Shown: positions 39,871 to 63,901, numbered from the stretch's first letter. The stretch is DNA of 64,000 nucleotides from a virus (IMGVR_UViG_3300036770_006954:64001-128000), one strand, 5' to 3'. Notes: generated by a model from the sequence alone, not told the origin. Numbers and translations are program-made.

Positions 39871-41385
39871 ATGTCAATTTATCGGTCGTATTTTAATAGA
39901 AACAATACTTTATTATCAAACCTTTACACCAACACCGCGAGAAATCCCGTGGTACAACTCAATTTTGGTAGTAGTGACCTTGTAGTCCCCAATTTTGGAT
40001 TCACCCGTTTTATATTTGATTTGGACTTAGAGGGTCTTGAAGAAATGATTGCCGATAAAGTTATTTCCACAGGTTGTACCACAGGAATGACACATACCCT
40101 TATGATGACAAATACATCATCGTTCGACGATGAACTCCTTAACACTAATATGAGTGACGGGAGAAAAAGAGCCACATCATTTGATTTAATACTTTTTAGG
40201 ATACCGAAATTTTCAGGGGACACAGGTTCACCACAAATATGGGACGAAGGTGTTGGGTACGATTATAATAATTTTGGAACTACCCAAAATGGACTTGCGG
40301 GAATGCAATCATCATTAGAACAACTAAACAATAAAAGTTTTTCTTTAAGACCATCTAACTGGTACCAAACAACCACCGTAACAAATTGGTCCGAACCAGG
40401 AATCTATAATAATAAAAACTCCCTAACAAGTCTTACAGGACTTAACTACTCATCAATTACAATAGTTGACGAACAAAGATTCGAATTGGGTAACGAAGAT
40501 ATCCAATTTGATATGACCGATGAGATAAACGGAATTTTAGACGGTTCAATCACAGGAGTAACAGGATGGGGTATTGCCTACAAACCCGATATTGAAAACA
40601 TTACAGGTTTAACAGAATCATACTCTGTTGGATTCTTCGGAAAATACACACAAACATTTTATCAACCATACCTTCTCACCAATTACGATGACTTGGTTAA
40701 AGACGACAGAAACCTTTTCCTAAAAAACCAAACAAACAAACTATACTTATATGTCTACCAAAATGGTGACTTTGCCAATTTAGACAATTTACCTGGTGTA
40801 AATATAGAAAACCAAAACGGGGACATTGTACAGGGGGGTAGTGGACTTACTACTTGTCAGGTAACAAAGGGTGTATATGAGGTAACCGTTCCGAATATAT
40901 TTGTGAATCAACCAACCCCGTGTCTATTTTACGATGTTTGGACAGGTCTTACAATCAATGGACAATCGTTACCTAATGTGACAAATCAGTTTGTTCTTCA
41001 AGCCTACAGTGCGGGAATTCAAATAGGTAGTAACTCACAAGAACCAAGTAAATATGGATTCAGTTTCTACGGTATTTTACAAAATGAAAAAATTCTCAAC
41101 ACCGAAATTCGAAAGATTGGGGTCGTGGCTAAGAAACAATGGACTTCTCAACATCAACTGGAGAACATTGACATCTACTATAGAGTTTATGTTAGAGAGG
41201 GGACAACTGAGGTTCAAGTACAGAATTGGACTCCTGTAAACCGTACTCCAAACGAATATTATTTCATATTTGATATGAGAGATAAGATACCGAATGAATA
41301 TTTTGTTGACATCCGTGTTAACACTAGTGGTGAAAAAGATATTTATAAGGACACGATTCAATTCCAAATTGTTAACAAGAAATGA
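39871..41385 (+). CDS. Putative virion structural protein
   Basis: Beta-rich 504-aa ORF; late motif at 39850-39857; many [ST]GxT motifs. Confidence 0.55.
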   Translation: MSIYRSYFNRNNTLLSNLYTNTARNPVVQLNFGSSDLVVPNFGFTRFIFDLDLEGLEEMIADKVISTGCTTGMTHTLMMTNTSSFDDELLNTNMSDGRKRATSFDLILFRIPKFSGDTGSPQIWDEGVGYDYNNFGTTQNGLAGMQSSLEQLNNKSFSLRPSNWYQTTTVTNWSEPGIYNNKNSLTSLTGLNYSSITIVDEQRFELGNEDIQFDMTDEINGILDGSITGVTGWGIAYKPDIENITGLTESYSVGFFGKYTQTFYQPYLLTNYDDLVKDDRNLFLKNQTNKLYLYVYQNGDFANLDNLPGVNIENQNGDIVQGGSGLTTCQVTKGVYEVTVPNIFVNQPTPCLFYDVWTGLTINGQSLPNVTNQFVLQAYSAGIQIGSNSQEPSKYGFSFYGILQNEKILNTEIRKIGVVAKKQWTSQHQLENIDIYYRVYVREGTTEVQVQNWTPVNRTPNEYYFIFDMRDKIPNEYFVDIRVNTSGEKDIYKDTIQFQIVNKK

Positions 41386-41864
41386 AAAAAATTATCAGAC
41401 TAACCGAAACAGATATTAAAAACTTGGTTCTAAGAGCTTTAAAAGAAGCGGAACATGAACATAACCGTTACATGTTTTTCAGCAACTTAGAGCAACTAAA
41501 AAGACAAGCTGAGAGGTTATTAGAACTTGATTCGGATGTAATACACTCAATTTTGGAGAATGGTCACGATTGGGCAGATGACCATATTACCGTTGCAAAA
41601 GAAAACCTTGACCAAGTGTTTGATTTCTTAATGGGTGAAACTCAAGGGATGGATGATGATGAAATGATAATGGTGGATGATGTCACTGTCTTGGAAGGTA
41701 AAAAAAAGACAGGAACAAAATTATGTGCTAGGGGTAAAGCGGCGGCTAAGGCTAAATATGATGTATACCCCTCTGCATATGCCAATGGTTACGCGGTACA
41801 AGTTTGTAAAGGAAAAAAACCAGGTCTTGACGGAAAAAAAAGATGTTCGGGGACCTATTGTTAA
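41382..41864 (+). CDS. Putative head-internal protein with LTE leader and DUF5872-like C-terminus
   Basis: MKKIIRLTETDI leader; KAKYDVYPSAYANGY motif. Confidence 0.55.
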   Translation: MKKIIRLTETDIKNLVLRALKEAEHEHNRYMFFSNLEQLKRQAERLLELDSDVIHSILENGHDWADDHITVAKENLDQVFDFLMGETQGMDDDEMIMVDDVTVLEGKKKTGTKLCARGKAAAKAKYDVYPSAYANGYAVQVCKGKKPGLDGKKRCSGTYC

Positions 41865-41888
41865 TTTGAAAAGTTTGATTTACCTTTG
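41858..41888 (+). promoter_or_regulatory. Bacteroidota-type housekeeping promoter (-33 TTG / -7 TAnnTTTG)
   Basis: TTG at 41858-41860, 20-nt spacer, TACCTTTG at 41881-41888. Confidence 0.5.
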
Positions 41889-41900
41889 TCGTCAAAGATA

Positions 41901-42308
41901 ATGGTAATGAAAAATCTAAACCACACATTTCGTCGTTTCATTCAAAAACTGGCTTTGAAATTATTTCGGTATTTAAACACCGAACAGGAAAGGTCAATTT
42001 ATGAACGGGACTGCATTGCAGTTTGTAAAAAATTTATTTACGAACCTGATTCAATAATGTTACTAACTCCGATTACAAGTAAAAGATACATTAGAAGTGA
42101 AAACAGTCAAATTTTTATTATTTTAGAATCCCATCGTGTAAAAATTATTAACCATGTGTATGCATATGATGTACTGATGAATGACAGGTCATGGAATCAA
42201 TTAATCAAATTGTTTGACAATGAAGTTGAAAAACGGAGGGAGGATTTTGAAAAACAAATCACAAAAAATATCAAAACTTCACTACAAAAAATTATTTCAG
42301 AAAAATGA
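41901..42308 (+). CDS. Hypothetical protein
   Basis: ORF; start at 41901 or 41907. Confidence 0.6.
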   Translation: MVMKNLNHTFRRFIQKLALKLFRYLNTEQERSIYERDCIAVCKKFIYEPDSIMLLTPITSKRYIRSENSQIFIILESHRVKIINHVYAYDVLMNDRSWNQLIKLFDNEVEKRREDFEKQITKNIKTSLQKIISEK

Positions 42309-42664
42309 AACACCCATTCTATACTCTCTACTATACAGGACTTGCCGTCTTGATTTCCCTGTTACTTTTTGGTGGATTATTTATTTCCAATCTCTCAAAT
42401 ATTGTTGACCTTATACCAAAAGAGAATAAACCTAAGGTTCAATCAAATGTGGTAATAAATCCTATGGTGTTAGAAACAACAACACCTAAATCATTTGTTG
42501 AGTTGAATAGTCCCAAAGTAGAAAAAAAAAGGAAAACTGAAACTGAAAAACCAAAATTAGACACTGAGGATACTAATAGTATTCACAATAACATGAATAA
42601 TGAAACACCTAATACTGTAAACAACTTAGATACTACGCAAAAGAGAGGAGATACTACCCTATAG
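42305..42664 (+). CDS. Membrane-anchored hypothetical protein
   Basis: N-terminal hydrophobic helix GLAVLISLLLFGGLFI. Confidence 0.55.
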   Translation: MKHPFYTLYYTGLAVLISLLLFGGLFISNLSNIVDLIPKENKPKVQSNVVINPMVLETTTPKSFVELNSPKVEKKRKTETEKPKLDTEDTNSIHNNMNNETPNTVNNLDTTQKRGDTTL

Positions 42665-62617: not shown

Positions 62618-62637
62618 AAAAATAAAAAAAAACAAAA

Positions 62638-63132
62638 ATGAAAAAAGTTATTAGACTTACAGAATCAGATTTGACAAGAATTATTCAAAGAGTTATTGAA
62701 GAACAAGAAATGACTCAAGCAAATAAGAAATCACCTCAACAATGTGAGATGATTAAAAAGAGAGCCCTCAGAAATAAAAACAGAGGTCAAAGATTAATCA
62801 AAATGTTCCCAAAACCATTACAAGGAATAATGAGTAAATCTTTTGACTCTGGCATCAAAAATGGTGTTGAATCATTCTTTACATCAATCCCCACAGAAGT
62901 CAGAAGTGAGGTCAAACAAAAATTTAATAAATCAAAAAAACCGAAGACTGACGCTGAACTCGATGTTATAATTGCAAATGCAGAGTCAGGACAACAAGAT
63001 ATGCAAGAACAAACCGCAAGTTGGAAGGACTGGGTTTGGCTTATGGTTCTTTTGGCAATCATTATTTTTCTAATTTGGAACGGCACCCGCAATTACGGTG
63101 AATACTGCGGTCAGTCAATTTGGTGGAATTAA
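62638..63132 (+). CDS. LTESD-leader protein with C-terminal TM helix
   Basis: MKKVIRLTESDLTRIIQRVIEEQ; WVWLMVLLAIIIFLIW. Confidence 0.65.
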   Translation: MKKVIRLTESDLTRIIQRVIEEQEMTQANKKSPQQCEMIKKRALRNKNRGQRLIKMFPKPLQGIMSKSFDSGIKNGVESFFTSIPTEVRSEVKQKFNKSKKPKTDAELDVIIANAESGQQDMQEQTASWKDWVWLMVLLAIIIFLIWNGTRNYGEYCGQSIWWN

Positions 63133-63153
63133 AAAATTTATCATCACACACTT

Positions 63154-63188
63154 AAACCCTCCCTCAAAAAAAGGGGGGGTTTTCTTTT
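63154..63188 (+). terminator. Intrinsic terminator
   Basis: AAACCCTCCCT-loop-AGGGGGGGTTTTCTTTT. Confidence 0.7.
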
Positions 63189-63211
63189 GGGTGAAATGGT
63201 ATTTATAACAT

Positions 63212-63901
63212 ATGAGGGACATTATACTCAAGGTATTAAAAGAAGAAGTTAGTAAAGGGAAAGTAACTTGCGACAACTGTGGATGGTCTTGGAAACTATC
63301 AGAGGGGGGTCATGACCCTTACATTTGTCATCAGTGTAACCATAACAACGAACCCAAAAATTTAAAAGAATCTTACCGACACCCCAACCCGGAAAGTTTT
63401 AAAAAATACTTCAAATTGGTGAAAACATATTGGGATAAAGTAGGTCTCACTAGAGATTCAGAGGAAAAGGCAAAAAAATACATTTTGGATTCTACACTAT
63501 CATTCCCGTTTGTTTTGGCATATCTTGGTGGCCGTGAAAAATTTTTGGAAACAATTTCAGATAAAATTATAGGTAAAATTTTTGAGTGTGAGTATTGTAT
63601 TGGATATAACTTCAAGTATTATGTCAATGAGATTTCATTGGACGAAAACATGCATTATAGGGAAATTAATGTGAATGCGGTTATTGACACGACTTCTTTA
63701 TCAGGAAGGACTTATAGCTACGAAGATGGATTTACAGATGTAGACTACAAAAAATTATCGGAATTGGAGGGCTCAGAATTTTATTCTGATGTACTTCAAG
63801 AAATTAAAGCGGAAATGAGTGATGATTTAGAAAAAAAGATTGACGCACCATTTGAACTTTACATTGAAGTTGAAACCTTAAAGTTCGAGACTTTCGATTA
63901 G
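63212..63901 (+). CDS. Leader-bearing zinc-ribbon protein
   Basis: MRDIILKVLKEE; CDNC...CHQC; late motif at 63200-63207. Confidence 0.6.
   Translation: MRDIILKVLKEEVSKGKVTCDNCGWSWKLSEGGHDPYICHQCNHNNEPKNLKESYRHPNPESFKKYFKLVKTYWDKVGLTRDSEEKAKKYILDSTLSFPFVLAYLGGREKFLETISDKIIGKIFECEYCIGYNFKYYVNEISLDENMHYREINVNAVIDTTSLSGRTYSYEDGFTDVDYKKLSELEGSEFYSDVLQEIKAEMSDDLEKKIDAPFELYIEVETLKFETFD

Follow-up and report, generated by a model that had tools for sequence, protein, structure and literature searches.

A portable N-terminal leader on unrelated late proteins of T4-like phages, a candidate capsid-targeting tag

The T4 capsid-targeting sequence (CTS) of internal proteins is said to go back to work by Mullaney and Black in 1996. 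The internal proteins of T-even phages are highly diverse, and the CTS alone is conserved among them (PMC3012670). In the T4 record, (L/I)-x-E closes the CTS of IPII and IPIII and recurs in the N-termini of gp22, gp23, gp24 and gp67. Here, we describe a 22-residue leader that heads otherwise unrelated proteins of a distant T4-like phage. The window that we analysed comprises 64,000 nucleotides (IMGVR_UViG_3300036770_006954, bases 64,001-128,000 of one viral contig of 171,629 bases with 36% G+C), and all positions given below are counted from its first letter. With moderate confidence, we read the leader as a capsid- or prohead-core-targeting tag that would be trimmed after a Glu residue and that is analogous, not homologous, to the T4 CTS.

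Like the CTS of IPI, IPII and IPIII, the leader is a short N-terminal peptide and the sole conserved part of diverse small proteins, and it closes in the hydrophobic-x-Glu site of a gp21-type protease. Three traits of a T4-type CTS system were found, namely a peptide common to unrelated proteins, a hydrophobic-x-Glu end and an S77 protease within a head module of T4 order; an acidic scaffold is present as well. As with the T4 internal proteins, the cargo genes are scattered and turn over fast, and some of the cargo resembles anti-restriction proteins. The T4 CTS has 10 residues (MKTYQEFIAE), whereas the leader has 22-26 and joins a beta-like stretch to a capped helix. Unlike the CTS, it occurs in 7-19 copies per genome and on 9,560 cargo clusters, can also lie inside a protein, at its C-terminus or in tandem in the same chain, and has enzymes and membrane proteins among its cargo. 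Since a direct comparison with the translations of T4 ipI, ipII and ipIII gave no shared motif beyond the terminal x-E, and a different length, the leader is best regarded as an analogue of the CTS and not as a member by descent.

S77 systems with short N-terminal propeptides are also known from giant phages (SPN3US gp245 and phiKZ gp175; PMC10052503, PMC5694885), and SPN3US gp245 cuts after Glu, removing propeptides of 20-24 residues (PMC10052503). The likeness lies in the large myovirus heads, the many internal proteins, the Glu at P1 and the 20-24-residue propeptides on some head proteins, and the Val preferred at P4 in SPN3US has its match in the V-I-x-E of the leader. Unlike the leader, these propeptides have not been described as one near-identical portable sequence on unrelated proteins, and P3 is Ala, Ser or Gly there, whereas it is Ile, Leu or Val in the leader, as in T4. 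In phage P1, the N-terminal signal of DarB (>9 and at most 30 residues) is by itself enough for a foreign protein to be packaged in the capsid (PMC9024508). Likened by description only, P1 is a myovirus that loads its capsid with anti-restriction cargo delivered on infection, and its major capsid protein (MCP) is cut after Glu (E120|S121); the DarB signal differs in serving a single protein within the stepwise Dar assembly pathway and not as a family-wide tag. Encapsulin cargo-loading peptides, too, are short conserved peptides on diverse cargo, which dock inside an HK97-fold shell. They are usually C-terminal and not removed by proteolysis, serve cellular nanocompartments with neither portal nor DNA, and have unrelated sequences. 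The principle is known from T4. We found no published description of the peptide itself, of its length and two-part build, of its use in many copies and positions, of its restriction to one lineage or of the extent of its cargo. Motif strings run through the searchable literature returned nothing relevant.

The leader and its cargo

The first-pass annotation of the window had proposed a shared leader on unrelated late proteins, and the peptides that it quoted were all located at the coordinates given there. A leader profile, applied first to all possible starts and then to a six-frame translation of the whole genome, recovered exactly three significant copies (E 1e-11 to 1e-16), the next match having E about 1. 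The full 22-residue leader stands at 41382..41447 (P0001, gene 41382-41864; E 7e-12), at 61705..61770 (P0002, gene 61705-62043; E 5e-15, also read from the translation) and at 62638..62703 (P0003, gene 62638-63132; E 1.5e-16), always on the plus strand, with the consensus MKK(I/V)(I/V)(R/K)LTE(S/T)D(L/I)..(I/L)(I/V).R(V/A)(I/L).E. Downstream of it, as that annotation had also claimed, the three cargos have no Pfam or PHROG family in common. P0001, whose start overlaps an upstream gene of 504 residues (ATGA), continues with a helical domain and a Cys-rich C-terminal domain (phrog_27331); P0002 has a C-terminal hydrophobic segment, and P0003 a C-terminal transmembrane segment and the motif CGQSIWW. 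Across 12 orthologues in the P0003 family the leader is 68-95% identical, while cargo identity goes down to 27-39%.

The leader extends far beyond this genome. A search pattern, the fully degenerate back-translation of MKKxIRLTESDLTRI, found 93 IMG/VR loci on contigs of about 5-322 kb, often with several tags per locus. Six-frame extraction gave 210 leader open reading frames (ORFs), 149 of them unique, with a median of 127 residues; the cargos of the unique proteins form 107 clusters, many of them acidic, and BLAST detects no similarity from one cluster to another. On 52 further loci, in genomes of up to 412 kb, proteins start with a variant of the tag that has four residues inserted (LTESDLHRIVKESVNRILKE). 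For the most divergent variants, the genomic context was taken from IMG/VR loci only. Against 1.84 billion cluster representatives, a 30-position profile matched 9,560 proteins at E<=1e-3 (counted as protein clusters at 50% identity) and 816 at E<=1e-10. The tag lies at residue 1-4 in 132 of the best 150 matches and at residue 12-13 in 7 more, the latter probably having mis-called starts. Near-complete genomes, of roughly 170-410 kb, carry 7-19 copies on unrelated cargo. We saw the tag on viral contigs only: 185,579 species genomes of bacteria and archaea lack it, an ESM Atlas search with the leader returned only viral clusters, and tblastn against 50,697 cultured phage records gave no match at E<=10. 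The smaller contigs that bear it are all estimated to be 3-30% complete, and no complete small genome with the tag was found. As judged from these searches, only T4-like phages of 170-410 kb from an uncultured lineage have the tag. When 110 leader proteins were scanned with Pfam-A and PHROG, no family was found to cover the leader, all matches lying in the cargo.

Three parts can be told apart in the leader: MKKIIRL, which is short and extended; TESD, a capping box; and an amphipathic helix closing in (I/L/V)-x-Glu. Residues 1-8 are predicted to be extended and 9-27 helical (AlphaFold model of P0001, with a low-confidence pLDDT of 52 and used for secondary structure only), and the hydrophobic moment of helix residues 9-22 is 0.75, exceeded in 0.55% of shuffles. 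Columns 16-22, which the search patterns left unconstrained, read V/I, K/R, R/K, V/I, I/L/V, x, E. Glu22 is present in 146/152 cases and I, L or V at position 20 in 149/152, position 21 being free. Information content drops from 3.4 bits at Glu22 to 1.3 at residue 23 and 0.6 at residue 24, and is at background from residue 25. The edge of conservation thus falls sharply at Glu22, in (I/L/V)-x-E.

Such conservation could in principle be kept at the level of DNA or RNA, as the boundary of a recombination cassette, a translation-initiation element or an RNA structure, with the peptide being incidental. Tandem arrays of leader genes, fast-changing cargo and fusions of adjacent genes are indeed what would be expected if the 5' ends promoted cassette exchange, a process earlier proposed for the T-even IP locus (PMC3012670, ref. 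23). However, most synonymous positions differ in codon among the three window copies (e.g. Ser AGT vs TCA or Leu CTC vs TTG), which indicates selection on the peptide and not on a DNA or RNA element. Moreover, the pattern that found the 93 loci is fully degenerate at the third codon positions that it covers, and conservation tracks amino-acid class and stops at a codon boundary. We therefore rejected this explanation, which is largely refuted and keeps hardly any credibility. A Sec or Tat signal peptide or a SAR anchor was likewise discarded: the consensus MKKIIRLTESDLTRIVKRVIKE is charged at least every 4 positions, and the leader is predicted to be helical from residue 9 and is amphipathic, with no uncharged core of 10-20 residues.

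The tag is not confined to N-termini. Many proteins read leader-domain-leader-domain, and some carry two or three copies. Some internal copies retain Met-Lys-Lys, which reads as the signature of a fusion between neighbouring leader genes, and others stand at the extreme C-terminus. There is also a short form. Orthologues of P0001 have either a full leader or its second half only, e.g. MN---LNRIIKKVLKE|. The first-pass annotation had counted as leaders both MRDIILKVLKE at the start of P0005 (63212..63244, plus strand; gene 63212-63901) and LRDLIQKVLKE near the C-terminus of P0006 (42666-42698, minus strand; gene 42654..43277). Both score at chance level in the genome profile search, and it is their orthologues that speak for a short form. 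The P0005 family keeps the helix M(R/K)(D/N)(L/I)I..(V/I)L.EE throughout, with a zinc ribbon after it, and the helix matches the short leaders of P0001 and P0006 orthologues; P0005 is a probable short-form member. This is a widespread family of about 230 residues, in which the ribbon (CDNCGWSW...CHQCNHNN) follows right after the short helix, and its shorter relatives carry PF25735.

P0006 is a conserved head-adjacent protein with the N-terminus MKRKINE|STT (43257-43277). Its orthologues (in the genomes G009, G003 and G007) start with a short leader, of the form MLNDIIKKILRE|ATS in G009, and have recurrent I-x-E|(A/S)(S/T)S junctions. Where the window protein stops, in LRDLIQKVLKESIG, the G009 orthologue has a full leader and the G003 orthologue a short one, each with additional domains behind it; therefore the C-terminal motif of P0006 is homologous to the leader, and by its orthologues P0006 has a short form at both ends. 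Two further assignments of the first-pass annotation found no support. P0004 (62045..62617, plus strand), a small membrane protein with an Arg-rich tail, begins with MKILISESQYKVLVEQ, at most a possible divergent leader that the profile did not detect, and the N-terminus of the 'WYL gene' (window 15662) likewise scored at chance, neither having support beyond resemblance. Orthologues of P0002, P0004 and P0005 were not found among the loci examined. The genes between 61705 and 63132 (plus strand) encode three consecutive small proteins with a hydrophobic segment each, behind one terminator-plus-promoter, and could form a lysis or envelope-acting cassette.

Recognisable cargo domains are rare. 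Those related to the cell wall are a Tae4 peptidoglycan amidase, PG_binding_1, LysM and several endolysin-type PHROGs; the others are an S-adenosylmethionine (SAM) lyase, a sigma-70 region 4, other regulators and a methyltransferase-like match. As predicted from these domains, the mix suits wall penetration, anti-restriction and takeover, and would be expected of proteins that leave the virion at infection without being proof of it. The earlier description of the cargo as effectors for injection draws on these domains only and should be taken as a suggestion.

The same proteins could be seen differently, with the leader as a self-association or membrane-proximal helix of late accessory proteins, including lysis and envelope proteins, that act in the cell and are never packaged. 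The strong amphipathicity (hydrophobic moment in the top 0.6% of shuffles) fits such a role, as do the two or three copies in some proteins, the several cargos that are peptidoglycan hydrolases or binders, and the grouping of P0002, P0004 and P0003, small membrane proteins encoded behind a single late-type promoter. Yet a clear hydrophobic segment occurs in only about 4/107 cargo clusters, and the SAM lyase and sigma-like cargos are cytoplasmic. A plain oligomerisation helix would be free to drift, whereas in clade 1, one of the two clades of tag-bearing genomes, the leader is more conserved than the MCP (72-79% identical). Neither the Glu boundary nor the placement in the head module would be explained, and we consider a purely intracellular helix improbable.

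Head module, late promoter and Clp-like ATPase

The preferred reading, a capsid-targeting tag, draws on the surroundings of the leader genes. On the minus strand, between 43.6 and 53.2 kb, the window holds head genes in T4 order, from large terminase to MCP: large terminase, portal, orf235, orf150, S77 protease, a 69-residue DUF4494 ORF, a 533-residue acidic scaffold-like protein and MCP (in T4, by synteny, 20-67-68-21-22-23). The prohead protease, of T4 gp21 type (Peptidase_S77, 47373..48089; PF03420 E 6e-23, phrog_207 E 2e-43), is the enzyme that we propose to process the leader proteins. The MCP belongs to the Gp23 family (43595..45388; PF07068 E 9e-74), and the acidic scaffold-like protein (45419..47020) is placed at the position of T4 gp22 by synteny and orthologue alignment. 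Between portal and protease lie two small ORFs of 150 and 235 residues (48116..49519), in the interval that is filled in T4 by the prohead-core genes 67 and 68.

It is this interval that leader genes occupy in clade 2, where the order is portal, one ORF, leader-164, orf150 homologue, leader-110, leader-132, protease, scaffold, MCP; in the clade-2 genome G020 a leader gene directly follows the protease. Orthologues of P0001 and P0006 flank the MCP, those of P0001 adjoining it in G003, G009 and G007. Both proteins contain Cys-rich domains (P0001, YPSAYANGYAVQVC, 41715-41843, plus strand; P0006, PWVNICRK..PPCGR..YPKCRA, 42750-42935, minus strand). The same two types of domain form the adjacent small genes gp51 and gp52 of Pelagibacter phage HTVC023P, and the P0001 type stands between the scaffold and MCP genes of the Prochlorococcus podovirus P-SCSP2; these neighbourhoods hint further at an association with the head.

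The first-pass annotation had also pointed to LxE sites in the MCP and scaffold. They are present, but as a count they carry no weight: [LIV]xE occurs within the first 25 residues of 42% of the proteins of this phage, the density in the MCP equals the proteome mean, and we set the counting aside as uninformative. Considering position instead, the N-terminus of the MCP, compared by eye, reads NKW..L..G.GL and then I-A-x-[IL]-[FY]-ENQ, resembling the propeptide motifs of T4 gp23. These motifs precede YLINE|ASS, at the place of FLTE|AEIGG in gp23, from which we infer a maturation site at Ile58-Asn59-Glu60|Ala61 (45209-45217). With BLAST, the MCP aligns with gp23 only from its residue 74 onwards, which is already downstream of the site that we propose. 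Six clade-1 genomes have an invariant LINE|A with a variable patch behind it, and clade 2 has HLIYE at the corresponding place. In the orthologue alignment of the scaffold-like protein, a conserved N-terminal block closes with LVKE|SL, and variable acidic sequence follows.

The MCP has an extra stretch between the blocks aligned with T4 gp23 (about residues 100-160), the length of which differs within the clade. The protease ORF of G020 has 607 residues, with the S77 domain split into two pieces. Next to the 625-residue portal of the window, the portal ORFs of G002 (1,031 residues; L164:6874-9969, plus strand) and G007 (1,340 residues; L167:14400-18422, minus strand) are long, and their matches to it are broken into two or three separate pieces; this points to large insertions that keep the frame and may be inteins.

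Leader genes also share a promoter-like motif, (G/A)TATTTAT(A/T), with structural genes. In sense orientation and 5-60 nt upstream, it precedes 40 genes of this genome, as against 13 in the antisense control. Among them are the genes for portal, orf235, protease, scaffold, tail sheath, head-tail adaptor and giant fibre, the leader genes at 41382 and 61705, and those at 42654 and 63212; upstream of the genes tested for RNR, DnaB-like helicase, DNA helicase and carbamoyltransferase it is absent. The motif scan places copies on the plus strand at 61683-61689 (before the leader gene 61705), 41340-41346 and 63200-63206, and on the minus strand at 43292-43298, 47044-47050, 48104-48110, 49540-49546 and 51457-51463. 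In other genomes it precedes 101/153 leader ORFs, with a peak at -25 to -11, compared with 222/671 neighbouring ORFs. Orthologues in both clades have it as well (scaffold 8/8, orf235 5/5, protease 6/8, P0006 3/3). It is probably the late promoter of this lineage.

The tag keeps to large T4-like phages that encode an S77 protease. The protease was found in 5/5 near-complete clade-1 genomes and in 14/19 clade-1 records, the records without it being fragments, and in 3/4 near-complete clade-2 genomes. The exception, G022, is 317 kb long, is rated 95% complete and has 7 leader genes; TerL, portal, MCP, S77 protease and Clp-like ATPase all went undetected in it, with no sign of stop-codon recoding. 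Because these genes are missing together, the head region probably lies off the contig, and we treated G022 as uninformative: either the completeness estimate is wrong or the head module is of another type.

The Clp-like double-AAA ATPase (59614..61638, plus strand) lies directly upstream of the leader gene at 61705. With AAA, AAA_lid_9, AAA_2 and ClpB_D2-small domains it is ClpA/B/C-like, having two AAA modules without Clp_N or a middle domain; its identity is 60-72% among clade-1 genomes and 39-42% in clade 2. The distance from the ATPase to the head module is about 10-25 kb in clade 1 and in G021 and G023, and about 80 kb in G020. The leader could be a docking or recognition tag for another conserved hub, and this ATPase would be the most plausible one, for unfolding, remodelling or timed degradation. 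Near-invariance of the leader implies one conserved partner, a leader gene abuts the ATPase in the window and in G006, and AAA+ tags are typically terminal, as are leaders at N-termini and sometimes at C-termini. Furthermore, the ATPase is found in the same records as S77 (14/19 in clade 1, and the complete clade-2 genomes). Because it co-occurs with the tag equally well, the co-occurrence of S77 is confounded by shared ancestry, and comparing the two fails as a discriminator, both being core genes of both clades.

Other observations speak against the ATPase as partner. It is hard to rationalise why more than 100 unrelated late proteins should be given a structural-type promoter merely to be degraded. 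A protease site accounts for the invariant (I/L/V)-x-E end and for the sharp boundary, which an unfoldase tag does not. Internal copies stay conserved, and the leader genes of clade 2 sit inside the portal-protease interval, with the ATPase about 20-80 kb off. We thus regard a docking tag for the ATPase or a similar hub as unlikely. Both enzymes might also act in turn, the tag being a substrate signal for the ATPase, which would unfold tagged proteins and feed them into the prohead, where S77 would trim the tag afterwards; we think this very doubtful. If true, a machine driven by ATP would load proteins into a viral capsid.

The proposed route into the capsid

Returning to the capsid-targeting tag, we propose that the leader would act as a portable address on otherwise unrelated late-expressed proteins, which would co-assemble with the scaffold core of a T4-type prohead. 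The gp21-type (S77) protease would then cut after Glu22, possibly also after Leu-Thr-Glu9, and the cargo would remain in the capsid and pass, together with the DNA, into the next host cell. The essential part would be the helix, since it persists in orthologues that lack the first half and is also found internally and at C-termini. Given the internal and C-terminal positions of the tag, binding or targeting would be its primary function, and cleavage as an N-terminal propeptide a secondary one. In its general outline, this agrees with the earlier notion of a modular zip code that ends in a gp21-type site: the Glu boundary, the S77 protease and head module, the position of the genes, the promoter and the cargo all point the same way, and the packaging and cleavage steps stay putative.

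A number of observations weigh against this proposal. Its support is indirect throughout, and the tag is missing from the cultured phages searched. Where the tag stands at the very C-terminus there is nothing to release, which does not fit a model of a propeptide only. Glu22 is usually followed by N, Q, S or D, whereas A or S comes next at the inferred sites of MCP, scaffold and P0006, and [LIV]xE is frequent by chance. Compared profile to profile, the leader and the N-terminus of the scaffold gave P 0.015, which is not significant and was not used as evidence, and the same comparison with the N-terminus of orf235 gave nothing. Some cargos have transmembrane segments, those of two among the three window genes included, and many cargos are strongly acidic; several endolysin-like cargos could act from within the cell. 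Finally, G022 has leaders with no detectable head module, and the Clp-like ATPase accompanies the tag exactly as S77 does.

Implications for the heads of large phages

If the leader is a capsid address, a 22-residue motif would label about ten thousand protein families that are packed into heads and delivered before or with the DNA. No other catalogue of candidate injected phage proteins would come near this one in size; a simple sequence search would be enough to compile it, and it would include functions in anti-defence, host takeover and wall penetration. The internal-protein strategy of T4 would then be ancient, re-invented with another peptide in a distant T4-like branch, and the lineage would come with a natural, ready-made tag for packaging proteins. 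The tag makes it testable which proteins the heads of jumbo phages carry, and how these are chosen.

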